Shown piece by piece: positions 12,990-53,500 of a DNA stretch of 64,000 bases (positions are counted from its first letter, which is position 1; each line of letters opens with the position of its first letter). Under the pieces are notes generated by a model. The model did no database searches and was not told where the DNA came from. It saw nothing but the letters and a program-made list of their open reading frames with translations. A program made the position numbers and the translations under genes. The DNA comes from a virus (taxonomy: Duplodnaviria > Caudoviricetes), in IMG/VR virus record IMGVR_UViG_3300028833_000075, positions 1-64,000 of that record. The stretch is one strand, 5' to 3'.

Positions 12990-13096
12990 GCAACTCGACA
13001 GCAGGACACGCAAGATTAAAGCTGTTAGGTAGTACGGTCGGTAGTAACACAATTTTTTATAAGTTGCAACAAACCAGAAACCTTGAAAAACAATAC

Positions 13097-13139
13097 GGAG
13101 CGGTATCGAAGCGGTCATAACGGGGCTGACTCGAAATCA
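13097..13139 (+). other. 5' half of tRNA-Ser(CGA), the att core; not a complete tRNA
   Basis: GGAGCGGTATCGAAGCGGTCATAACGGGGCTGACTCGAAATCA: acceptor 5' strand, D arm and anticodon loop CTCGAAA, then similarity ends. Confidence 0.82.
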
Positions 13140-13228: not shown

Positions 13229-14344
13229 TCATTTGATTGTGTCCGTGACTGCTTTCAGATCTTCAAGCGGACTGCTTTGATACTGACTGCGAGTAAAATT
13301 GTAATCAGTATGTCCAATCAGCGCAGCTTTATCTCTATCGTCGCCTTGTGCATGCTTGAGTTTATCCGCATAAGTATGCCGGGCAGAATAAGGAACTTTA
13401 CCCCAGATTCCCAATGATTGAGTGATTGGCTTAAAAACAGATTCATTATAATAGTTTGTTGTCATTTTTCGAAATCCAACAAACTCTTTTGTGTGAATCC
13501 GATAACAGTACATTGGAAATAAGTAATCCGTTCCTTCTATATTAATACGCTCTAAAATATAATCAATTATCTGTTTTGGAATAACAACATTTCTGTCGAT
13601 CCCGGCTTCAGTTTTTATGCCTTCTGTAATATAGTAGACTGTTTCGTTGTCAATGACTGTTGATTTAACCTGATCTTTCTTAATTTCAAGAAATTCACCA
13701 GGCCGAAACCCAAGATAGCATTGGCAATATATATACTCAGCATAACGTGTTTTTCCAATTAAACCTTTTATTGCTTCAACTTCAGGCGGAGTCAGCGGGT
13801 GACGTTTTGTTGTTGTGTGTCTCCCTATATATAAGTTATCAGTAACATCCTTCTGAATGATGTTTGCATCTACAGCATATCCCCAGATAAGACCGGCTGT
13901 AACTTTCATTAATTGGTGCGTTCTCTTACCAGCTGGACATTTATCCATGCAAGCTTGCAATTCTGCAGCTGTAATAGTTTCAATTCGTCTGTATTTTAAA
14001 TCTGCAAAATGATTGTATGCTTGTTCGTAACCTAATAATGTTTTAGGTTTGACTCTGTTTTTATAGAATTCTTTCCATTTTTTAAAAACTTCATCTAACA
14101 TGGTAGTATTGACTTTAGGAGATTCACCGTTTAGCAATTTATTAAGTGCAGCTAATGCATCCTTTTTTGTCTTAAAGCCGCTAATTGTTTTCTTGATAGG
14201 AGATACATGTTTTCCTTCTTCTTTAGGCGGCTTCCATCCAACAACGATTTGAGCAATCCAGCATTTTCTGTCTGAGCGATAAAAGACAGATCCTTGTTTA
14301 TTTCCTCTTGACTTCGGTTTGCCCATTATTTGTGCTCCTCTCAT
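13229..14344 (-). CDS. int: tyrosine integrase
   Basis: N-terminal arm-binding region; GFRPGE, IKTEAG, YSARHTY, IGHTD...QY catalytic motifs. Confidence 0.95.
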   Translation of the reverse strand: MRGAQIMGKPKSRGNKQGSVFYRSDRKCWIAQIVVGWKPPKEEGKHVSPIKKTISGFKTKKDALAALNKLLNGESPKVNTTMLDEVFKKWKEFYKNRVKPKTLLGYEQAYNHFADLKYRRIETITAAELQACMDKCPAGKRTHQLMKVTAGLIWGYAVDANIIQKDVTDNLYIGRHTTTKRHPLTPPEVEAIKGLIGKTRYAEYIYCQCYLGFRPGEFLEIKKDQVKSTVIDNETVYYITEGIKTEAGIDRNVVIPKQIIDYILERINIEGTDYLFPMYCYRIHTKEFVGFRKMTTNYYNESVFKPITQSLGIWGKVPYSARHTYADKLKHAQGDDRDKAALIGHTDYNFTRSQYQSSPLEDLKAVTDTIK

Positions 14345-14400
14345 ACAATAACGCTATTATAATAGGAAGAAAAGGATCATGTCAAACGTAGGAGGTAAGA

Positions 14401-16416: not shown

Positions 16417-16575
16417 ATGACATATTGGGATGAATTAACGGAAGAGCAGAAACGGAATTGCTATGAATCATATGTCGGTGATTGTATCTATGAGAACGGA
16501 GATAATGCAACATATTGGTCATATGATGAATGGTGTTCTGAATGCGAAAAATCTGGTGAAGCGTTATTTTTGTAA
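16417..16575 (+). CDS. small acidic protein, 52 aa, absent from the ORF track
   Basis: MTYWDELTEEQKRNCYESY...; preceded by GTGAAGTGTGATG. Confidence 0.5.
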   Translation: MTYWDELTEEQKRNCYESYVGDCIYENGDNATYWSYDEWCSECEKSGEALFL

Positions 16576-16618
16576 AATTGCTGTATAGAATCAATTAACA
16601 TACGAAAAGGGGGCTATA

Positions 16619-16828
16619 ATGTCGTTTAGTGACGCTGTGTTGGCAATGAAACAAGGGAGAAGAGTACGTCTGCCATGGTGGAAAGGATATTGGTACATTG
16701 CCAACGGCACACTCAGAATACATTGCGCTGACGATAGAGACTTCAACGCATTCAGCGCAGAAAACACGGAACCGCTTTATACATTGTCGTTTATGGCGGC
16801 TAATTGCTGGGAAATAGTGCTGGATTAA
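16619..16828 (+). CDS. DUF2829/Tad2-like (Thoeris anti-defence sponge family) protein
   Basis: MSFSDAVLAMKQGRRVRLPWW...AANCWEIV follows the family pattern F..A...K.G..V.R..W...A.DW.IV. Confidence 0.6.
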   Translation: MSFSDAVLAMKQGRRVRLPWWKGYWYIANGTLRIHCADDRDFNAFSAENTEPLYTLSFMAANCWEIVLD

Positions 16829-16969
16829 GTAGCTAAAATTGCTGTTTAATGGCAATACGGAAGCCAAAATCCGGCACCCATCCGGGATAGAAGCGGGGAG
16901 AAGTCGAGAAGCTAACTTGCACTAAGCCGAGCTGGTGAAAGGCCAGCATTTTAAATCTTAAATTGCTGA

Positions 16970-17194
16970 ATGGAGAAGAAAATGACAGGATGGATTAATG
17001 TAAACGATGCATTGCCGAAAAGATGCGAAAATGTTCTTGTTTTTATAGAACACGACGCATGGAAAGACAATAAAAAATATCGAAAAACCGACGTTGGAAT
17101 CGGTTATCAGACAGACGGTTATTGGCATGTTTATGGATTCGCCATGCCTGTCGAGGGACTATATTGGATGAATTTGCCAGAACCGCCAATTTAA
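16970..17194 (+). CDS. DUF551-like protein
   Basis: WINVNDALP...VLV...YWMNLPEPP. Confidence 0.75.
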   Translation: MEKKMTGWINVNDALPKRCENVLVFIEHDAWKDNKKYRKTDVGIGYQTDGYWHVYGFAMPVEGLYWMNLPEPPI

Positions 17195-17393
17195 AGAACT
17201 TAACTTCGCAAAAGGAGCATATTCGGAATCGCAATCTTGCTGTATTACGAAGCGAAAAAAGGGGGTGGCGCTATGCAGAAAGCAGTTGATGAATTTAATA
17301 GCAAATATACTGTTCCTCAGTAGCATTGCCCGGAAATACGGGCATTAACAGATGTAAAGTTGATGTATAGCGAAGCAGTATAAAAAGAGGTAG

Positions 17394-17603
17394 ATTGATA
17401 CGACAACAAAAATAGATGATTTTATCAAAAGAGTTGAATCGACTGCAGAAGAAGATTTCTTTACTCCAAGAACGTTTTATCATCTTTCGTCTTCAATGTT
17501 TCATGAGATGTGCGATCTGCTGAAAGAGCAGGAAAAACAAATCAAAAAATTTGAGTTGGAAAGAAGTTTGGATGAGAGTCCAGACATGATGGGAAAATGG
17601 TGA
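17394..17603 (+). CDS. array protein with LLKEQE box and non-canonical (ATT) or mutated start
   Basis: 70-codon open frame after GAGG, ending at a GGTGAAG box. Confidence 0.4.
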   Translation: MDTTTKIDDFIKRVESTAEEDFFTPRTFYHLSSSMFHEMCDLLKEQEKQIKKFELERSLDESPDMMGKW

Positions 17604-17864: not shown

Positions 17865-17870
17865 AGTGGG

Positions 17871-18236
17871 ATGCCTGACAGGGAGAAGGTTATTAGAGAT
17901 TTGGAGACATATCGGGACAGGGATTTTATCCGTGAAGGAAAAACTGTTTTTGATAGTGATCCTCGATACAGGAAAATGATAATCAATAATGCAATTGCCA
18001 TTCTGAAAGCGCAGGAATGGATAAGCGTTAAGGACAGACTGCCGAATTGCAACGGATGCTACATTGTATGGAGACCGCATTTTTACCATGATAAAGGTAT
18101 GCCATCTATTTGCTATTTTGACGGGAGCAACACATGGCATGATTCATACGGTGTAGATTTCTCAAGACTACTTGCACCAGAGGACGTGTCGCATTGGAAA
18201 CCATTGCCGGAACAACCTTACAAAGTGGTGAAGTGA
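17871..18236 (+). CDS. array protein: DREKVI module fused to DUF551
   Basis: MPDREKVI...LKAQE-WISVKDRLP...HWKPLPE. Confidence 0.75.
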   Translation: MPDREKVIRDLETYRDRDFIREGKTVFDSDPRYRKMIINNAIAILKAQEWISVKDRLPNCNGCYIVWRPHFYHDKGMPSICYFDGSNTWHDSYGVDFSRLLAPEDVSHWKPLPEQPYKVVK

Positions 18237-18446
18237 ATGGACAGGGAAACTATAATCAAAGCAATTGACATTTGCCTTGGACACGGAAAGTGCAACGATT
18301 GTCCGTATTATTTAGGCGAAAAAGGATGCACAACAATGGATTGTCAAGACTATATGTTACAGGATACTCTTGCCCTGCTGAAAGAGCAACAGAAACTCAT
18401 TGACGACATTACGCGGAGGAGGGTAAACAATGGGGAGTTCGATTGA
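18237..18446 (+). CDS. array protein (DRE-CPY-LLKEQ)
   Basis: shared modules. Confidence 0.7.
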   Translation: MDRETIIKAIDICLGHGKCNDCPYYLGEKGCTTMDCQDYMLQDTLALLKEQQKLIDDITRRRVNNGEFD

Positions 18447-18672
18447 CCGAGAGAAAGTTATTAAAGGACTTGAGCATTGTGAGTTTGGTGGTTCTGGTCC
18501 TTGTTACGAAAATGATTGTCCGTACTATCAAAGTCACGACTGCACAGATGAATTGAGAAATGACATTCTTTCCCTGTTGAAAGAGCAGGAAGCGGTTGAG
18601 CCAAAATACAAAGAACATATGGATGGATTTGTTGCCGGATTTAAAACTGTTTACCGGGAAACCAACTTTTGA
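18430..18672 (+). CDS. array protein (DREKVIKGLE-CPY-LLKEQEAVEP)
   Basis: shared modules. Confidence 0.7.
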   Translation: MGSSIDREKVIKGLEHCEFGGSGPCYENDCPYYQSHDCTDELRNDILSLLKEQEAVEPKYKEHMDGFVAGFKTVYRETNF

Positions 18673-18696
18673 ACAGTGCAAGGAGATGAAGTGTGA

Positions 18697-19002
18697 ATGA
18701 TTGACCGAAAAAAACTAATTAACGAGTTGGAAATACTAAAAAAATGTAACACAAGAAACTGTATTGATTGTGAATTCTGTATTAAAAAACCCGGAAAATT
18801 ATCAATGTGTATGCTTCGGGAATCAATAGACATATATGATGATATAATTATATTTCTGAAAGAACAGCCAGAAATTGTCCCATGTAAGGATTGCAAATTG
18901 AATATTGGGACACCGCACAATCCTATGTGCAAGAAAGATTGCAATAGTCATGAATCGAATTGGTTCTGCGCTGACGGGGAAAGGAAGAGTGATGATGCTT
19001 GA
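18697..19002 (+). CDS. array protein (LKEQ-PCKDC-WFCADG)
   Basis: shared modules. Confidence 0.7.
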   Translation: MIDRKKLINELEILKKCNTRNCIDCEFCIKKPGKLSMCMLRESIDIYDDIIIFLKEQPEIVPCKDCKLNIGTPHNPMCKKDCNSHESNWFCADGERKSDDA

Positions 19003-19201
19003 CAAGGAGAAGGTTATCAAAGACCTTGAGTTTTGTGTGAATGGTCATTTCAAAGTGGAATTATCATTGGCAACAAAAATTCTTGCCCTGCTGAAAGAGC
19101 AGGAAAACGAATATGAAAATGGGTTTAATGACGCTATGCTTGGCAAACAAGAATTGATGTATGAGGGTATAGATGGAAAATGGCACAAGAAGGACTGGTA
19201 A
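18992..19201 (+). CDS. array protein (DKEKVIKDLE-LLKEQE)
   Basis: shared modules. Confidence 0.65.
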   Translation: MMLDKEKVIKDLEFCVNGHFKVELSLATKILALLKEQENEYENGFNDAMLGKQELMYEGIDGKWHKKDW

Positions 19202-19208
19202 AGTGGGA

Positions 19209-19403
19209 ATGAGCGAGTTTATTATGAAAGCAAGCACAGATGAACAGGCAGAGTTTTGCAGACGATACAGTAATATGCAGGAACTTGTCAGGTGCAAGGA
19301 TTGCACTTTGCGGAACGAGATAAACTGTCCGCAGTATTACAGACGGACAGAGATTTCGGACGATTATTTCTGCGCTGACGGGAAACGCAAGGAAGGTCGG
19401 TGA
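19209..19403 (+). CDS. array protein (VRCKDC-YFCADG)
   Basis: shared modules; junction box GGTAAAGTGGGAATG. Confidence 0.65.
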   Translation: MSEFIMKASTDEQAEFCRRYSNMQELVRCKDCTLRNEINCPQYYRRTEISDDYFCADGKRKEGR

Positions 19404-19409
19404 AGTGAA

Positions 19410-19736
19410 ATGAGCCTTGACAGGGAGAAGGTTATCAAAGGGTTAGAATGTTGCACAAACATAAACATGAAGTGCGAAGAAGAAAAATGTCCGTATTGGA
19501 AAAATGATGATTGTAGCGATGACCTTATGCGTGATGCCCTTTCTCTGCTGAAAGAGCATGAAGCTGTTGAGCCAAGACGGGATGCAAATTGCGTGAGGAT
19601 GTTCCGTTGCGGTGCTTGTGGTAAATATGTCGGATTTATTGATTCAGACCCAGGTGATCCTAATGAGCAGGACAATTATTGCAGGAATTGCGGACGGAAG
19701 GTGAAGTGGGATGGCAATTATAAAGCAATGCGATAA
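19410..19736 (+). CDS. array protein (DREKVIKGLE-CPY-LLKEH-Zn ribbon CGRKVKW)
   Basis: shared modules. Confidence 0.7.
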   Translation: MSLDREKVIKGLECCTNINMKCEEEKCPYWKNDDCSDDLMRDALSLLKEHEAVEPRRDANCVRMFRCGACGKYVGFIDSDPGDPNEQDNYCRNCGRKVKWDGNYKAMR

Positions 19737-19923
19737 ATGTAAAACAATCGTTGGTGTCGATGCTTTGATAACGATTAACAGAAAAAGAAAATGCATAAAC
19801 CAACATGATGGCGAGTACATTACAAGCATACAGACAGATTATGACCTTTGTGAAAAATGTGCAAGGGAGATTGAATTACTCTTTATCAGCGTAGAAAAAG
19901 CAGATGAAGTGATTATGACTTAA
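19711..19923 (+). CDS. zinc-finger protein (CDKC...DLCEKC)
   Basis: junction box start. Confidence 0.6.
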   Translation: MAIIKQCDKCKTIVGVDALITINRKRKCINQHDGEYITSIQTDYDLCEKCAREIELLFISVEKADEVIMT

Positions 19924-19947
19924 ATGCTGGAAAGTCGGTAAAATGGA

Positions 19948-20184
19948 ATGGTTGAAGAGCTGAAACCGTACCCGTTCTGCGGAGGGAAAGCGAAAGTAGC
20001 AAAAGTGCATCCTTCTTTCATGCTCAAGAAATTACATGACTTATACTTTGCTGCAGGTTGTCCTCAATGTGGAGCGTCTACAACAATGTTCAGAACAAAG
20101 AAAACTGGATCACCGACGATGAATGAATGGTATGACGGTGAAGCAAAACAAAAAGCAATCAAAACATGGAATAAAAGAGTTTAA
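19948..20184 (+). CDS. Lar-family restriction alleviation-like protein
   Basis: ELKPYPFCGGKA...CPQCGA...AIKTWNKR; first Cys replaced by Tyr. Confidence 0.7.
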   Translation: MVEELKPYPFCGGKAKVAKVHPSFMLKKLHDLYFAAGCPQCGASTTMFRTKKTGSPTMNEWYDGEAKQKAIKTWNKRV

Positions 20185-20199
20185 AGGCGGTGAAATAGG

Positions 20200-20367
20200 A
20201 TGACTGAAACCATTATTATCCTTTGCGCATTGGGAGCAGCAGCAGTTACGTGCATAATTGGGCTTATCGTTGTTACCTTTAGGGAAAAGAAAATAGAAAA
20301 GAAAACAGGAGAAAAGCCTACATATTACAGTGCCGTCGGTAACTGGTTGAGTGGAAGAAGAAGGTAA
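20200..20367 (+). CDS. small membrane protein, 55 aa, absent from the ORF track
   Basis: MTETIIILCALGAAAVTCIIGLIVV TM segment; preceded by GGCGGTGAAATAGGATG. Confidence 0.5.
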   Translation: MTETIIILCALGAAAVTCIIGLIVVTFREKKIEKKTGEKPTYYSAVGNWLSGRRR

Positions 20368-20373
20368 AGTGGA

Positions 20374-20643
20374 ATGACTGAACGGGAGAAAATTATTAGT
20401 GAACTCCAATCTGCTTTGGAATGGTGTCAACCGGAAGACAATCCAAACGGGAGCATTGCAGTGAAAATATGGGCAGCACGTAATGCTATTATCATGCTAA
20501 AAGAGCTGGAGCCAAAGCCTGTAAAAGTATATGACGAATCGTTCTACTTTTGTCCTAAATGCAATCATCAATTTTATGGGTACTATAAAAGGCCAAACTA
20601 TTGTGACAGATGCGGGCAGGCGGTGAAGTGGAATGAGCCTTAA
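20374..20643 (+). CDS. array protein (EREKII-LKE-Zn ribbon CGQAVKW)
   Basis: shared modules. Confidence 0.7.
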   Translation: MTEREKIISELQSALEWCQPEDNPNGSIAVKIWAARNAIIMLKELEPKPVKVYDESFYFCPKCNHQFYGYYKRPNYCDRCGQAVKWNEP

Positions 20644-20962
20644 ATTTGTAAATAGGATTTGCCCGAACTGCAAAAACCCAAACTATATGGTTTTGCTTGG
20701 AGATTTTTCAAAATTATACAAATACAAATGTGTGAATTGCCACAGATACTTTAACGACATTGATTTTGAGAAAGAACCACTTCGGCCTACTTGGAAAATG
20801 GAGTGTATGAATACAAAAGTAGATATGGTTGAAGTGGTTCGGTGCAAAGACTGTATTTTACGTTTTACAGAAAAATGTATATTGCACGATAAGGCATTCC
20901 CAATAAATAAAGGAAACAAATGGTTTTGCGCTGATGGAGAAAGGTCGGCGAATGGAGAATGA
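20633..20962 (+). CDS. array protein (Zn ribbon plus VRCKDC-WFCADG)
   Basis: shared modules. Confidence 0.7.
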   Translation: MSLKFVNRICPNCKNPNYMVLLGDFSKLYKYKCVNCHRYFNDIDFEKEPLRPTWKMECMNTKVDMVEVVRCKDCILRFTEKCILHDKAFPINKGNKWFCADGERSANGE

Positions 20963-21222
20963 TAGTAATAACTACAATGAATTCACTCCCGGAGCATTGT
21001 TATGAATGTCCATGTTATAATAGTGGGAGCTGTTATTGTCAAGCTGATGAAGAACATAAATGTTCTGATTATAGACCTTTCTGGTGTCCGCTGGAAAAAC
21101 AGGACGTTATCGTACATTGCGAAAACTGCTTTTATTATGATCCAGAAACTGGACGATGCGCAAATAAAACTGTACATGGTAATGCAAAAACATGGTTCTG
21201 TGCAGATGGACGAATGCGGTAA
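20959..21222 (+). CDS. array protein (CYECP...CPL plus VHCENC-WFCADG)
   Basis: shared modules. Confidence 0.7.
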   Translation: MIVITTMNSLPEHCYECPCYNSGSCYCQADEEHKCSDYRPFWCPLEKQDVIVHCENCFYYDPETGRCANKTVHGNAKTWFCADGRMR

Positions 21223-21239
21223 TAAGGAGGATTTTAATT

Positions 21240-21698
21240 ATGAAGTTAACTAATATTTTCAAAAGATTCGGTGAATGGGTTAAGGAACTATTTTCAAAGA
21301 AATTTAAATCAACAGAACAGATATATTGGGTTAACCACATCCATGACGAATATGTGAATGCTTCACAAAAATCCGTCGGAATGTATGCCAATGTTCACGG
21401 ATTTGAAGGGCTAAACGATGATGGCAGCTGGACTTACTGGGTCGGTATTGATACACGGTTTATTGGTATTCGCGTTGCAGATATCGTAATCCGGTGTAAG
21501 AATAAGAGTACCTATGATCGTTGGATTTACCAAGCAACTCACGATCTAAACTCCATGCCAAGTGCTGTGCGAAACGATCCTAATCTTTACTGCCGTCTTG
21601 GAGACGATGTTGAAATTGATTTCAAGTTCCGCTGGGGCGACGAAGAGAAACATTTCAACGTAAGGTTCAGTGGCGATAGATATGCCGAAGAAAGGTAA
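21240..21698 (+). CDS. hypothetical protein
   Basis: AAGGAGG RBS before ATG 21240; 152 aa. Confidence 0.65.
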   Translation: MKLTNIFKRFGEWVKELFSKKFKSTEQIYWVNHIHDEYVNASQKSVGMYANVHGFEGLNDDGSWTYWVGIDTRFIGIRVADIVIRCKNKSTYDRWIYQATHDLNSMPSAVRNDPNLYCRLGDDVEIDFKFRWGDEEKHFNVRFSGDRYAEER

Positions 21699-21729
21699 CT
21701 CGCTGTATTACACACCATTTAATGAGTAC

Positions 21730-21885
21730 AAAAAAAAGAAGCCTTTCGGCTTCAATCCTGTCTGGGTAGTGGCCTTCCGGTCGGCTCGGTGTTGCACTGC
21801 TCCATCAGGGGCGCACCCCATAATCTTGCTTCGACAATCATGTTAGGTCTGAAGAGGGATGTTCCATCTGACCTTCACTCCGACA
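21730..21885 (-). ncRNA. stand-alone structured small RNA, ~155 nt, possibly 6S-like
   Basis: TTGCTT-17 bp-(TG)TATCAT promoter at 21919-21891; GC-rich self-complementary body; GAAGCC-GAAA-GGCTTC-U8 terminator; no credible ORF. Confidence 0.6.
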
Positions 21886-22084
21886 CAAAGATGATACCAC
21901 AAAACAAACAAGCAAGCAACTGAAAGTTGCTGCTTTATAAAGTAATGCCGGGCGATAGCAACCAAGAGTTTATTTTTAATACTAACATGATGATACCAAA
22001 AGATAAAGATGTTGAAGATTTTCTAAAAGATCTTGCAGAAAAAGAAAACATCAAATTGGACAAAGCCTCTTAAAGGAGTTATAC

Positions 22085-47422: not shown

Positions 47423-47888
47423 AAGGATCACTCCTTTCAGCAATTTGGGTTTAAACCCATGACGATGGAAATAAGTCAACACGAGAACGCGAATTCGCTA
47501 TAGAGTTGTTGACGATCTCTTGGTGTTATGAAATTGTAAACTGCCCTGCGATCAATTAAGGTCGCAGGGCGAAATATTGCAATTAGATTCTCCTATATTC
47601 CATATAGCTTAACGTTTCACTATATATCACTGTCTGTTTCGAGACATGCGAAAGAATCTAATGAACAATTGATTTTAATTAATAAAAGATCTTATTACTT
47701 CGTAGCATAATTTTGTCCGAGGTTGGGCATAAGCCAATTCTCATGCCCGTATCCTCTATCGTACAGATCACTTTAAGGTCTTGATATACTTTCACCCTTT
47801 GCCACAAGTCTTGTGACCTGCTACTTCGTGATACATACTCACTGCACTTTTTGAGTTTGAACAGCACAAGGACGATCGGTTGTGATTA

Positions 47889-48095
47889 TTACAGAGTGAT
47901 ATCACATTTATTTAACGGAATCGCATTGCTAGCCGTTGTCGTATAAGTCCAGCTCGGATAGGTTATCGTGTCATACTTCTTGTTTCCATCCGCATATCCT
48001 TGACTGTAAGCATCGTCAAGCATCTTCTGGAGTTCATCCTTTGTGAGTTCAATTTTTCCATCTTTGTTCTTTTCGATAATAACAATTCGACTCAT
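47889..48095 (-). CDS. hypothetical protein
   Basis: MSRIVIIEK... after AAAGGA RBS. Confidence 0.55.
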   Translation of the reverse strand: MSRIVIIEKNKDGKIELTKDELQKMLDDAYSQGYADGNKKYDTITYPSWTYTTTASNAIPLNKCDITL

Positions 48096-48132
48096 AATTA
48101 TTCCTTTCTGTAGCATTGTGACTGCTACCAAC

Positions 48133-48618
48133 TACTTCGTAATACAGCAATATTGCGACCGTTGCCAGGAAGATCGGTGCATTGAATATCCCGGTTACCG
48201 GAGACACAGGAACGGATATAACAAACATTAGAATCACTTGGACAAGTCAACTTGGTTATCATTTACAAGTCACAACATCAAATGGAACGATTAGGATTAT
48301 AAAATGTGATGCATAATTTTCCTTTTGCGATTTTGTGCTTATGTCGGCAGTTTCATGTACTCGGTACGGATAAAGTAAATCGTTAGAGTTACGGTAGTGC
48401 TTGCAAGCGGATTTCCATTTGAATCATAAACACGGAATGTCCAGTTTCCACTACCTCCGACATAGTGTTCCGACCAACAGTTGTTTGTTATCTTTGTGTC
48501 AATAATAATTCGTGTCGGAGATATAGTGGTTGTGATGTATCCGCTTGCAGTTGTTGTTGCCGTTATTTCTATTACGCCAAACAACTCCTCATTAAACAAT
48601 TTGCTGTTTAACGAAGTA
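48133..48618. mobile_element. putative invertible (shufflon-like) segment with two alternative fibre C-termini
   Basis: inverted repeats TACTTCGTAATACAGCAA (48133-48150) and TTGCTGTTTAACGAAGTA (48601-48618), 16/18 identical, around back-to-back reading frames. Confidence 0.7.
48143..48316 (+). other. silent, start-less alternative fibre-tip cassette (57 codons)
   Basis: frame YSNIATVARKIGALNIPVTGDTGTDITNIRITWTSQLGYHLQVTTSNGTIRIIKCDA* begins inside the repeat, in the same register as LNSK of 48339-48752. Confidence 0.65.
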
Positions 48619-48752
48619 ATCTGACCTTCTACTGTTTTTCCGGATGGGACAGTTCCAATTTTATTATTTATTGTAGTTATGCTATCGTTTAGTGCATCAA
48701 TCTGCCCCTCAATTCCACCTACGTGGAAAACGCTGTTCGCCATTGCTGTCAC
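48339..48752 (-). CDS. short fibre/receptor-binding protein with switchable C-terminus
   Basis: EGQI..LN repeats, then an LNSK junction and a beta-rich tip. Confidence 0.7.
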   Translation of the reverse strand: MTAMANSVFHVGGIEGQIDALNDSITTINNKIGTVPSGKTVEGQITSLNSKLFNEELFGVIEITATTTASGYITTTISPTRIIIDTKITNNCWSEHYVGGSGNWTFRVYDSNGNPLASTTVTLTIYFIRTEYMKLPT

Positions 48753-49057
48753 TCCTCTTCTTCAGACTCAGGTTCCGGTTCCGGTTCAGGCAGATCAGCA
48801 ATCGTGCCAAACCGCCTTACCTCAATCTGTATACCGTCTGAACTGCGAATGATATACGCATATCCTACCTGATTGTCACGGGTGGCGAGATAGGATTCTG
48901 CCGCTCCCAGATAGCCGTACGCCGCTCTGCGAGTCTGCTCCAGATCATTGTTGTGTGTACGGCTGTCAACAATCTTCGGATATCCCTCCGGATCGTTGGC
49001 ATGATAACCGTCAGCATTTACATACCCCATGTGTACCTCGTAGATTTCCCGCTTCAT
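48749..49057 (-). CDS. hypothetical fibre-associated protein
   Basis: ORF with PEPEPE acidic tail between fibre genes. Confidence 0.55.
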   Translation of the reverse strand: MKREIYEVHMGYVNADGYHANDPEGYPKIVDSRTHNNDLEQTRRAAYGYLGAAESYLATRDNQVGYAYIIRSSDGIQIEVRRFGTIADLPEPEPEPESEEEE

Positions 49058-49137
49058 TTGAATCATCCACCTTTCCATTTTATAACTAATCATATTTAAC
49101 TTTTGGGATGTTTGTTAAACAGCAATTTTGCAGAATA

Positions 49138-50505
49138 TTATGCAACAAGTTCAAACAAATGCACCGATGTCCATTGCGTAGATACTTCAACAGTTATGGT
49201 ATAGCCACTATATGAAACATTAGCTCCGGTAGCCTCCTTTATCGGCGTGATACTACCGCCAGAGGTATTGGCACGCACCATATACATACCAGAGTATTCT
49301 GCGTGTCCATTCCATGATTGGATAAGCAAAATTCCACCTACGCTTCTCCCGATATTAATAACGTGCGTTTTTATGGCTTCTGAGTAATTGGCATAAACTT
49401 GTCTAATTCCCATGTTGAGTATCTTGCTGTTTAAATTGTTAAAACCCCATGCATTATTGAATGAACCAATTACATCGTTAGGATTATTGTTATCATTATA
49501 TGAGTTGACATACAACGAACCATGATTTACATCAATTGCTCTGGATAACATTCCTTGATAGTGTTCTGCTTTGAAACTTGTTGTTGCGGAACTCATAACG
49601 AAATATATTGCTTCTTGCGTATAATTCGACATATTTGCTATTTCAGCAGATAATGCAGTCGCTAAAGAAGATTCTGAAGAAAAAGTGCCAAGATTTTTAT
49701 ATGTAAATTTGCTATTTATGGTATCAAGATCATTCCCTATGTCTGCAACATCCTGTGCATTCTCGTTAATTGCCGCGACCAGACTTGTTTTTGCTGTGGT
49801 ATTCAAATCACCAAGCGTCCCAATCCGTCCGGCGAGAACATCAAACTCATTAGATGTAATCGAACTTGCCCCCGCAACGAACAGTAACCCCACCTTAACG
49901 GTGGAAGTTCCCTTAACACTGGAACAACTCAGCGTGATTGAACCGTCCGCAGGAGTGATTGTGATGTCTGCAAGGAAAGCGGAAGGATCACCCAACTCAA
50001 TCATCACGGCTTTCATGTCTGCCGTAACATCTGCAATCGTTGTGGTGTGAGTATACGCTCCGCTCGTGTTGGTTACAGTATCCAGTGTTTTCTCAATCAG
50101 CTTTGTTCCGGGTGGAACATCCCATGTGCCGTCACCCTTCAGGAAATATTTCTGCGTTCCGGCTCCCGGAGCAGGAACAAGACCGCTCGTTCCTGTTGAG
50201 GATGTGGTTGCTCCGGTGAATACATCTGGTTCAGCGATCTCTTTCCATGTACCATCCCCAAACAACACCTTGTTTTGATCGCCAGCGCTAGGAGCAGGAA
50301 CCAATCCGTGTGTGCCTACGGTAGAAGATGTTGCTCCTGACATGTCTGATGGATCGGCTACATTTTTCCAAGTGCCATCGCCAAATAAAGCTTTTCCTTG
50401 ATCCCCTGCCGCAGGAGCTGGAACGAGACCTGAAGTTCCTGCGGTTGTTGAAGTTGAACCAGTCATTTGAGAAGAGACAGGTACGTCAAAAATTGCTGTA
50501 GGCAA
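49138..50505 (-). CDS. tail-fibre protein with three GLVPAP repeats and two (L/I)NSK-bounded C-terminal modules
   Basis: GLVPAP.AG.Q...L.GDGTW x3; TAKTSLVAAINE; INSK and LNSK junctions. Confidence 0.75.
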   Translation of the reverse strand: MPTAIFDVPVSSQMTGSTSTTAGTSGLVPAPAAGDQGKALFGDGTWKNVADPSDMSGATSSTVGTHGLVPAPSAGDQNKVLFGDGTWKEIAEPDVFTGATTSSTGTSGLVPAPGAGTQKYFLKGDGTWDVPPGTKLIEKTLDTVTNTSGAYTHTTTIADVTADMKAVMIELGDPSAFLADITITPADGSITLSCSSVKGTSTVKVGLLFVAGASSITSNEFDVLAGRIGTLGDLNTTAKTSLVAAINENAQDVADIGNDLDTINSKFTYKNLGTFSSESSLATALSAEIANMSNYTQEAIYFVMSSATTSFKAEHYQGMLSRAIDVNHGSLYVNSYNDNNNPNDVIGSFNNAWGFNNLNSKILNMGIRQVYANYSEAIKTHVINIGRSVGGILLIQSWNGHAEYSGMYMVRANTSGGSITPIKEATGANVSYSGYTITVEVSTQWTSVHLFELVA

Positions 50506-50527: not shown

Positions 50528-53500
50528 TTATAATGTATGAACTACTTTCTTTTTTCTTTGCAGTGTTTTAGGTAAATCTCTTACTATGGTAATTGTTTCT
50601 TCTTCGTATGTCATTTCAAAAATAATTTGATGATTATCCTCTGTGGAAAAGATCTTTCTGTCATTTGGAAAAATATTTCCATGTGTAGGAGGAGAAGAAA
50701 TGAATTCAGATCCGCTTCTTATAGAATAAGTATTGATGCTTTCCGGTTTGGTATAAGAATATGAACCATATAAACCAAAATTATCGTTGTTGCCACTCTC
50801 ATCGCATCTTGTTACCTGAAACGTTGGGATTACATTATCAAGCGCAGAATATGTTATTCCGGTTATTGTGTCTGTTCCAAGCAAATTTGCTCCGTTGTAT
50901 GTTTCTAATGACAGCGTTCCAGTTCCATATTTAGACATGTAAAAACACCATGCAACTGGAATATAAATAGATACGCTTGATACGCCTGCTGCAACTGAAA
51001 CCCATTCGGTTTCCATATCCGGACCGAAACTGAGATTATACCTGTGCGTAAAATCCATTGAAGCAATATTAATTGTTAATAAGGCAGTATCTCCACCCGT
51101 ATATGCCGTTTTATCAAGTGAGCATGTACTTTTTGTGATATGATAGTGACCAACGACGCTAACATTGCTTGCAGGCATCGTGAATTGATTGTTCGTAATT
51201 GTAACTTCAGGCGTTGTTTCGTATCCATCAAACGCATAACTCATTGATGGAGTTTGGCTTAAAGTGATTGTGTCTCCATAATTAGCGGTATCCGACGAGG
51301 CCGTAACAGTTCCGCCGACAGCAGGATCTGCGCTTGTGGTTATATTATAATCTATTTTTTCGAAAGAAGCAGTAACAGTAGTGTTGGCAGCTGGCATTGT
51401 TATTGTAGTAGATGCAGTTGATGCGCTGCCAATTGTGCCTCCCGTTGTCGTCCATCCGGTAAAACGATAGCCTGTTCCAGCGTTTGCAGTAATAGTTATC
51501 ACATCGTCATAATACCCGGATGTTGAATCAAGTGTAACACTACCGCTTCCATTAGGAGAAACCTCTCCGGTTAATGTATAGGAAACATGAGTAAAGTTAG
51601 CAGTAACCGTTGCGTTTCCTGCGCCCATTGTAAACGTTGTTGGGTTGGTTGTTGTGCTGGATAAAGTACCTGATGTATTCGTCCAGTTTGCAAATGCATA
51701 TCCGGTTGCTGGAGTCGCTGTTAATTCTTTGGTAGATGTATATTGTATTGTGTCGCCTGCCGTAACAGTACCGCCGCCTGTTGGGGAAACGGTTGTTGTT
51801 AATGTATAGTTGTTTTTTGTGAAGTTCGCAGTAACTGTTGCATTTCCGGCACCTATTGTAAACGTTGTTGGATTTGCGGTCGTGCTGGATAATGTTCCTG
51901 CGGTTTTGGACCAACTGCTAAATGAATAACCACTGCTTGCTGTTGCCGTTAATTGTTTCTGGCTGTTGTAGTTCATAGAACCGCCAGCAGTTACGGTGCC
52001 TCCTCCGGTCGGAGAAACAGCAGTAGTTAAAGTATAACTGTTGATTGTAAAATTAGCAGTAACAGTTGCATTGCCGTTTGGCATCGTATATGTCGTTGAC
52101 GCGGCATTGGCATTAGCAAGTGTACCGCCACTTGATGTTGTCCAGTTTTTAAATGTATAACCAGTTGATGCGGTTGCAGAAATACTACACTTATCGTTAT
52201 AGTATTTCGTACCTCCGCCGGAAACAGTACCTCCTCCGGAAGGGCTGACCGATAGCGTTAATGTTCTCTGAATATGTGTGAAGTTTGCTGTAACGGTCGC
52301 ATTGGCATTCGGCATCGTATAAGTAGTTGATGCAGAATTAGCGTTAGCAATCGTACCTCCACTGGAAGTAGTCCAGTTTTTAAATGAATATCCGGTCGCG
52401 GCAGTTGCTGAAATAGTAACTTTATCATTATAATACTTCGTACCGCCTCCGGAAGTTGTACCGCCTCCGGAAGGACTAACTGCCAGCGTAAGTGTTCGTT
52501 GGACGTGTGTGAAATTAGCAGTAACAGTCGCATTGCCAGCACCCATTGTAAATGTCGTGGGATTCGTTGTTGTGCTGGATAGAGTACCGGCATTTTTACT
52601 CCAACTACTAAACGCGTATCCTGTGGAAGCCGTGGCTGTTAAGCTTTTTGTTGAACCGTAGTTCATAGATCCGCCAGCGGTAACGCTTCCTCCTCCGGAA
52701 GGGGAAACTGCAGTCGTCAAAGTATAGCTATTAATTTTAGCATTAGCTGTAACTGTAACGTTTCCAGCCGGCATCGTAAAGGTGGTGCTTGCTGAATTCG
52801 CGTTTCCAAACGTGCCACCGTTATTGGATGTCCAATTCTTAAATGTGTAGCCGGTCGATGCTGTTGCTGAAATATTGTTGGAAGAACCGTAAGATTTGCT
52901 GCCTCCGCCGCTTACGCTGGAAATGCCCGTTCCTTTTGCTACAGTAAGGGTATAACTGTTTGTTCCAAAATTTGCCGTAACGGTGGCCGCGCTGGTCCCC
53001 ATCGTGAATGTGGTAGGGTTTGAGGTTGTACTTGACAGCGTACCAGCGGTTTTACTCCAACTACTAAAGTGACGTCCTGTGCTCGGGGTAGCGGTTAAAC
53101 TCTTGGTCGAATTATAGCTCATTGCTCCACCAGCGGTCACGCTGCCATAACCGCTGGGGGAAACCGTGGTTGTTAAAGTCCATGTTTGGTTTGCGGTTTG
53201 CATTGTGACCGTTGAAGCATTCTGGTGAGCAAAGCCATTGCTTATAATGGCCCCGTCTCTTGCTACTGTGAGATAGATTTGCTTTCCAGCAAGAGCCGTC
53301 CCTCCGGAGCCAATGGTAAAATCGGTTGTGTACACACGACTGGAACCGTAAATATACAACGTCGGTGACAACGCCACCCTGTTGTTGCCTGACGAATCAC
53401 AAAGGTATAATGTAAACGTTCCGGTTTTACCATTGTTTTCTTTCCAGGATGGCTTATCTTTGAATGTAATTGTACCACTCGGGTATTCACCTGTTCCTAA

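Follow-up and report, generated by a model that had tools for sequence, protein, structure and literature searches.

The 64,000-nucleotide window analysed here, the first 64 kb of the complete 150,578-bp record of a phage of the Caudoviricetes (IMG/VR record IMGVR_UViG_3300028833_000075; 127-bp direct terminal repeats; GC 0.40), carries a short DNA site in two kinds of place, namely at the junction of shaft and tip in fibre genes and in the gaps between small accessory genes. Alignment of its copies gave a core consisting of an asymmetric 6-bp spacer, TTGCTG, flanked by the 5-bp inverted arms TTAAA and TTTAA. Comparison with very close relatives showed, at the level of sequence, that this site family marks the ends of modules and that modules were exchanged at the site between three loci. 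The system is best described as the crossover site of a shufflon that now also delimits cassettes of accessory genes, having spread to their borders, thus combining a shufflon with module shuffling similar to that of PeSLs, the composites of sigma-70 promoter and stem-loop terminator found in T4-type phages.

A search with the small fibre gene of the window returned a protein (P0003) whose first 48 residues are identical up to ...SLNSK and which is wholly different thereafter, while the tip of P0003 stands behind another N-terminus in a further protein (P0002), with the break at ...LSSK. The ENA contig encoding P0003 (L060; 4,203 bp, 4.9x coverage) is 99.4-99.5% identical to the window where the two align. 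It runs from window position 52348 down to 49709, followed by 477 nt of a different tip for the fibre of 455 amino acids (aa), and then from window position 49122 down to 48601, followed by a new tip for the small fibre. Next come genome positions 130114-130290, which lie beyond the window and hold one 46-aa gene, and finally window positions 16573-16730 with a Tad2-like gene at 96% identity. All five synteny breaks fall on copies of the site, three at the left edge of the spacer, one within the spacer and one in a shared motif of 14 nt (Table 1), and the identity shared at the junctions amounts to 6-14 nt only, between otherwise unrelated sequences. The cassette of the 46-aa gene at 130.1 kb was transplanted as an exact motif-to-motif unit, and in both contexts it has its own right-arm side at the 5' end and its own left-arm side at the 3' end. 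A preliminary description of this DNA had proposed to look in relatives for gene gains and losses that end on the motif, and L060 provides them at five of five breaks.

Junctions of this kind could also come from ordinary mosaicism at gene borders or from faulty assembly, in which case the motif would serve regulation or coding only. Gene borders are where the mosaic joints of phages are usually located, L060 has low coverage and one close variant was found, all of which would fit such an origin. However, the five junctions lie within a few nucleotides of copies that together make up roughly 0.2% of the genome, and two of them are within fibre genes, away from gene borders. Overlaps of 6-14 nt are too short for any k-mer in common assembly use, and the arrangement that combines P0003 with the 46-aa gene is present in two recorded contigs, indicating that an assembly artefact is unlikely. 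We therefore consider mosaicism or artefact a scarcely credible source of these junctions.

Motif copies also stand at breaks toward the relative G001 (88.7 kb, 63% complete, with 66-93% nucleotide identity in aligning segments). Synteny with G001 breaks at 21702, 4 nt past the stop at 21698, where the window-specific part opens with a degenerate copy; the preliminary description had noted CGCTGTATTAC after this stop, and it is present there. At this break the window has 263 nt vs 3.7 kb of other genes in G001, and three motif-like copies precede genes within the 3.7-kb insertion. At the other accessory locus, homology between G001 and the genome starts at the motif-like copy at 131367, and the G001 homolog of the window's 69-aa gene adjoins an RNA-like element of the 131.4-kb type in that locus. 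The G001 fibre gene has a site coding ALNSN, with an inverted 15/16 copy just past its stop.

The comparison of copies supports, from their sequence, that the short intergenic motifs belong to the same family as the fibre-switch site. The accessory-type motif corresponds to the 20-nt consensus of the fibre copies cut down to its left 14 nt, and the copies of the fibre locus continue with the extension ACGAAGT. Perfect arms and spacer are found in the copy at 130700 and in two copies of L061, the contig encoding P0002. In reverse complement the site codes (S/A/T)-L-N-S-(K/N) where the shaft of a fibre protein meets its tip, the codon preceding Leu being TCG, GCG or ACG (Ser/Ala/Thr). Because the same AT-rich codons persist in phages with a GC of 0.33-0.57 while the Ser/Ala/Thr codon varies, the constraint is on the DNA bases and not on the residue. 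A perfect 14-bp palindrome (CAGCAAT ATTGCTG), equivalent to two spacer-plus-arm halves, was observed beyond the window at genome positions 149893-149906, within coding sequence of the + strand close to the right end of the genome.

The number of copies exceeds the background. The 16-nt core with up to 3 mismatches was found 4 times in the window, with 0.72 expected, and with up to 2 mismatches it is restricted in the whole genome to 17237 (+), 48150 (-) and 48601 (+). Genome-wide, AAATTGCTG occurs 12 times vs 3.6 +/- 2.0 expected, AATTGCTGT[AT]T 8 times vs 0.5, and TTGCTGT[AT]T[AT]A 9 times vs 1.1 (60 order-2 Markov simulations); the previously noted AAATTGCTG motifs at 16575, 16836 and 16960 were confirmed. 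When 12 copies were used to build a weight matrix, it scored them at 18-26 and the rest of the genome at 17 or less, and shuffled genomes were without any score of 18 or more. The copies form three clusters (16575-17252 on the + strand, 47446-49128 on the - strand and 129800-130918 on the + strand), and 10 of the 12 AAATTGCTG copies are in gene gaps in the orientation of the downstream gene, 19-54 nt before its start. Copies in one orientation part small accessory genes in two arrays and also stand after each fibre gene. The genes between them are of small accessory types, including a weak Tad2-like match, DUF551 and zinc-ribbon proteins.

The fibre locus has the layout of a shufflon, since the inverted sites 48135-48158 (-) and 48598-48620 (+) flank an expressed and a silent C-terminal segment that are in register. 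The sequence at 17.2 kb is related to both ends of the silent segment. As previously described, its 24-mer 17229-17252 (+) matches the reverse complement of 48135-48158 at 23/24 nt, and TCGCAAAAGGA is exact at 17206 (+; 17206-17216) and at 48320 (-; 48320-48330), with a 14-nt version before a gene at 130958. The box and the site are 12 nt apart (17217-17228) in the former and 161 nt apart (48159-48319) in the latter, where they bracket the silent tip frame. This difference in spacing between matching ends means that the description of 17206-17252 as an empty cassette unit holds. A gapped alignment of the 17.2-kb unit with the fibre locus showed that the ends of the upstream genes match weakly too. 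The palindromic or hairpin character also ascribed to these sequences was not borne out, as DNA folds of 17200-17256, 16830-16862 and 48128-48165 (z = -1.2, -1.8 and -0.8) were no better than those of shuffles.

Table 1. Coordinates of site copies, associated genes and variant junctions (J) in the window; J2 and the first J3 position are genome positions beyond it
Feature	Position	Strand	Remarks
Tyrosine integrase	13229-14344	-	sole recognisable recombinase and sole PF00589 match of the genome
Accessory-type motif copy	16573-16589	+	contains the stop of the upstream 53-aa open reading frame (ORF); L060 junction J3
Accessory-type motif copy	16834-16856	+	near-perfect arms, TAAAA-TTGCTG-TTTAA; followed by 124 nt without ORF
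Accessory-type motif copy	16957-16975	+	abuts the ribosome-binding site of the DUF551 gene 16982-17194
'Empty' silent-cassette unit	17204-17252	+	TCGCAAAAGGA 17206-17216, 12-nt spacer, full extended site 17229-17252
Degenerate extended-site copy	17352-17375	+	differs at 3 of 16 positions; lies in the following gene gap
Degenerate motif copy	21696-21711	+	directly after the stop of gene 21192-21698; G001 synteny break
Accessory-type motif copy	47430-47449	-	abuts the ribosome-binding site of the 232-aa gene (start 47422)
69-aa gene downstream of extended site	47889-48098	-	84%-identical G001 homolog in the other accessory locus
Extended site, start of silent inverted fibre tip	48135-48158	-	in-frame TAA vs TTA in the expressed copy
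Silent start-less tip frame, 57 codons	48143-48319	+	in register with the expressed gene across the site
TCGCAAAAGGA box, far end of silent cassette	48320-48330	-	exact match
Expressed small fibre gene, 134-137 aa	48339-48752	-	tip swapped in P0003 and P0002
Extended site inside expressed small fibre gene	48598-48620	+	inverted relative to 48135-48158; L060 junction J1
Accessory-type motif	49110-49131	-	7 nt past the stop of the 455-aa fibre gene; L060 junction J0b
Site copy in 455-aa fibre gene	49421-49437	+	codes LNSK
Site copy in 455-aa fibre gene	49705-49720	+	codes INSK; L060 junction J0a
J0a	49709		spacer left edge, after codons INS(K/N)
J0b	49122		within the spacer; copy past the stop of the fibre gene
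J1	48601		spacer left edge
J2	130115		spacer left edge
J3	130279 / 16575 copies		within the 14-nt shared motif

The same site was found in other rumen phages in the company of a recombinase. Scanning IMG/VR for a 17-mer of the site gave 15 loci, and inverted site pairs 330-870 bp apart occur in five of them (L066, L069, L071, L072 and L074, rumen phage contigs with records of 9.6-38 kb). On inspection, the pairs of L069 and L071 enclose an expressed tip together with a start-less silent tip of 102-106 codons that opens at the site; these two loci have the N-terminal part in common and diverge after ...TSLNS. L061 has two silent tips of 93-111 codons. A stricter 13-nt pattern gave exactly one forward and one reverse site in four of five whole records, and none in the record of L069. 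In L066, L069 and L074 a tyrosine recombinase of 335-360 aa lies 300-800 bp from the pair; it is Xer-like, with PF00589 matches of E = 1e-29 to 1e-32, a SAM_4 domain and no arm domain, and its nearest NCBIfam models are XerA/C/D. Fibre-tip switches that look complete, with invertase, silent tip and expressed tip, are located at L069 1196-3676, L074 300-3762 and L066 2179-4214 (GC 0.53-0.57), that of L074 having three sites.

The preliminary description had supposed that a single site-specific recombinase may serve both fibre tips and accessory cassettes, and it had named the integrase of the phage itself (13229-14344) among the enzymes to be assayed. The integrase is the sole recognisable site-specific recombinase of the genome, and the motifs of its catalytic domain appear intact on reading. 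However, it has weak arm-type and SAM-like domain matches that are typical of integrases, and it shows no relation to the site-linked Xer-like recombinases (E = 0.12), whose phages encode a separate integrase as well. Beside it, at 13092-13139, is a 47-nt piece like the 5' half of a tRNA-Ser(CGA)-like gene, and contigs of many other organisms match this piece (depth about 280) and then run into a tRNA T-arm. Judged from these matches, 13092-13139 is probably an attP core, which would mean that the phage integrates into a tRNA gene of its host, and 13229-14344 looks like an ordinary integrase with its attP. The gene is separated from the nearest array by 2-3 kb and is oriented oppositely to it. 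These results leave the phage integrase as a very unlikely catalyst. A perfect sigma-70 consensus promoter (TTGACA, 18 nt, TATAAT) at 14356-14385 (-) points into the integrase gene.

In the reading that we prefer, the 17.2-kb sequence and the AAATTGCTGT-type motifs would be complete or truncated crossover sites of a tyrosine-recombinase fibre-tip switch, i.e. a shufflon. The shufflon site of several rumen phage contigs would have spread beyond the fibre locus in this phage, and site-bounded modules, being fibre tips or single accessory genes, would be exchanged between the three loci and between co-circulating phages by crossover in, or at the edge of, the spacer. These exchanges would be made by conservative site-specific recombination, and 17204-17252 may be what such an exchange left of a silent-tip cassette, now decayed or emptied. 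Because no cognate invertase was found in the genome, the enzyme is placed in trans, coming from a co-resident prophage or the host, or is taken to be an unrecognised phage protein. We assign a probability of about one half to conservative site-specific recombination at the spacer by a trans-supplied Xer-like invertase or an unrecognised enzyme.

Several results weigh against this reading. No homolog of the site-linked Xer-like invertase was found in the complete genome (tblastn E > 0.6), and neither was a serine recombinase, an IS110-type DEDD enzyme or a Y1 HUH enzyme. The silent tip was not found as an expressed C-terminus in a collection of 5.8 billion proteins, to be read with the fact that assemblies keep the major form only, and the protein database contained no inverted version of the fibre segment. 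If the site were active, deletions would be expected to arise readily in its direct-repeat arrays. Most accessory-type copies are without the ACGAAGT extension that invertase-linked sites conserve, and the spacer at J0b is deviant in L060. Furthermore, many G001 breakpoints and metagenome-contig joints are at other boxes of the neighbouring array of Cys-rich genes (GGTGAAGT and a box coding LLKEQ), indicating that short-homology recombination operates in this lineage and could also explain the junctions on the motif.

Such short-homology, PeSL-like shuffling by the general recombination of the phage would use the motif as the only sequence that unrelated cassettes share, the motif itself being a conserved gene-border box such as a compact phage-polymerase promoter, an operator or a translation/processing signal; the likeness of the fibre sites would then reflect the same box fixed in fibre genes and recombining with intergenic copies. 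The co-orientation of the motif with genes, its position 19-54 nt before starts, often abutting the ribosome-binding site, and the joints at other boxes would be expected from such a process, as would a genome without a cognate recombinase, and shuffling by PeSLs together with mini-circles has been published for T4-type phages (PMC2839356, PMC4122927). The Tad2-like cassette of L060, with 96% identity vs 99.5% in its flanks, fits an exchange with a different co-circulating phage. On the other hand, the identity of 6-14 nt is far below PeSL length, and a promoter scan showed no sigma-70-type hexamers at workable spacing at the copies, which eliminated the reading of the motif as a sigma-70 promoter. 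Four copies touch the ribosome-binding site, so that a transcript could hardly start there, and the 232-aa gene does not need the motif, as its G001 ortholog has none upstream. A regulatory role would also leave unexplained why inverted arms surround an asymmetric spacer, why the site is conserved irrespective of codons in fibre genes of GC-rich phages and why an Xer-like recombinase is its neighbour elsewhere. We regard short-homology shuffling as the main alternative, less likely than the site-specific reading. Analogies of the motif with sigma-54 -24/-12 spacing, the MotA box, the RegA operator and, for the 49128 copy, an rrn boxA-like element were considered, and none fits all copies.

A bolder version of the site-specific reading is a genome-wide cassette platform built on a minimal fibre-shufflon core, in which an Xer-like invertase that co-resident prophages provide in trans would excise, invert and re-insert site-to-site units. 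We put it forward tentatively and as rather unlikely. If true, one enzyme-site pair would reassort receptor-binding tips and anti-defence-type genes, within a genome and between phages sharing a cell, and would be functionally a phage integron without IntI or attC.

An integron-like system that serves both tips and cassettes was indeed suggested by the preliminary description, and the part of this suggestion that stands is a single site family bounding cassette-like units. Integron attC sites are imperfect palindromes of 57-141 nt that fold as single strands. The arrays here resemble integrons in being composed of co-oriented small genes (16573-17252 and 129800-130935), each parted from the next by a site copy, in the movement of a single gene from site to site and in a cargo that looks adaptive, with genes of anti-defence type. 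By contrast, there is no IntI, the integrase 13229-14344 had no match to the NCBIfam integron-integrase models, the sites of 14-20 nt are not of the folded attC type, the same site also lies inside coding sequence, and neither an attI nor a Pc platform was identified. Judged by the features that define integrons, the system is not one.

Among shufflons and related switches, Gin of Mu, Cin of P1 and Min of p15B are serine recombinases that use 26-bp palindromic sites and an enhancer, while the sfx sites of R64, recombined by Rci, are asymmetric, with a conserved spacer and one conserved arm, as is the site here. In all of them, as in this phage, an adhesin or fibre has alternative C-terminal coding segments that converge and lie between inverted sites; Gin, Cin and Min differ in that no serine recombinase was found in this genome. 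To our knowledge, the site of the R64 shufflon or of Gin, Cin or Min has not been reported as a boundary of unrelated accessory cassettes. The Rin shufflon of Bifidobacterium prophages has a constant N-terminal part and alternative C-terminal tips on a tail receptor-binding protein, with an 11-bp asymmetric crossover repeat before each tip and an Xer-like tyrosine recombinase that lacks an arm-binding domain and is separate from the integrase (Mavrich et al. 2018, PMC6109161). A second inverted locus in that paper has an 8-bp site and no adjacent recombinase, and an invertase acting in trans was proposed for it (PMC6109161). The phage studied here is similar to Rin in tip layout and in having a short asymmetric repeat, and site pairs of the L066/L069/L074 type together with their Xer-like recombinase match the Rin layout. 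It differs in the site sequence, in encoding no invertase, in that inversion is here only predicted from the arrangement of the sequence, and in having the site at least 12 times outside the fibre switch, where it bounds unrelated accessory genes at two other loci.

PeSLs are tens of nucleotides long and act via homologous recombination (PMC2839356, PMC4122927). The likeness consists of short repeated intergenic elements that flank small non-essential ORFs in plastic regions, of units between two elements that can move and of ends of indels or replacements between close relatives within elements, represented here by J0a, J0b, J1, J2, J3 and the G001 breaks at 21702 and 131367. The present element differs in its length of 14-20 nt, in lacking promoter hexamers and a consistent hairpin, and in its anatomy of a recombinase core, shared with the fibre-tip switch. 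By composition, the system is not a PeSL system.

As to the setting of these loci, the + strand genes up to ~26 kb are small early or accessory genes, and the - strand genes from 26 to 81 kb are structural, the fibres among them. The Tad2-like gene (16619-16828) starts 41 nt after the array copy before it. A terminator-like hairpin at 16931-16947 precedes the copy at 16957-16975, the only motif copy with a hairpin before it, and the gap 16829-16985 showed no significant structure. Rfam scans of 12-26 kb and 127.5-133.5 kb gave nothing at the motif, and tRNAs only in the second stretch. For the silent frame 48143-48319, no homolog of at least 99 aa was found. When contigs of four runs were mapped on 10-28 kb, none of the joints listed was at a TTGCTG copy, a result that is silent on the absence of recombination there; RNA-contig cover from these runs was thin over 16-17.3 kb and carries no inference on expression.

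Near-identical DNA is present in sheep-gut metagenome runs of several studies. Other searches for relatives returned little: megablast of 43-63 kb found no match among GenBank phages, an exact 22-mer of the site had none in IMG/VR, the integrase as query led only to an unrelated 53-kb phage and the fibre to two distant loci, both without the motif. The 193-aa protein gave 44 loci, among which L007/G001 was the only true relative, and a scan of metagenome contigs gave at least two loci, both distant, among the matches listed. Exact-protein look-ups of the 69-aa and 70-aa genes returned no record, and other look-ups led either to the arrangement already present in the window or to contigs for which no DNA was available.

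Other features were observed around the arrays. Between 15800 and 21000, contigs of two sheep-gut samples join paralogous small Cys-rich genes variously at shared boxes, including a join of 17867 to 20960 that is also present in G001; at 17416-17603, two overlapping 35-codon frames jointly resemble one paralog with the LLKEQ box, possibly a frameshifted copy. The 263 nt at 21702-21965 are without genes and have a terminator-like hairpin at 21738-21753 (- strand) but no Rfam match, and one metatranscriptome contig covers 21770-22144. Beyond the window, genome 131367-131450 (L058) and L055 6345-6485 represent an element without ORF that is 94% conserved and resembles a T-arm at one end; it is preceded by a motif-like copy and kept between this phage and G001 despite different upstream neighbours. 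Also in L058, genome 129213-129444 and 131500-131640 have tRNA-like ends (acceptor and D-arm 5', T-arm and acceptor 3') split by an insert of roughly 100-150 nt. They have five ordinary tRNAs nearby and were not called as tRNA by Rfam or ARAGORN (the latter on the G001 counterpart).

Phage mosaics rarely reveal the molecular sites of exchange, and here nearly identical genomes show exchanged modules that end on a site of 14-20 nt. Through this site, fibre tips, which determine host range, are linked with accessory and probably anti-defence genes in one exchange system. Even if the exchanges are made by short homology, shuffling of the PeSL type would extend beyond T4-like phages to a much shorter element. 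If instead an invertase acts in trans, phages could pool cargo genes via a shared recombination 'currency', and the evolution of host range and counter-defence in the rumen virome would become directly testable.

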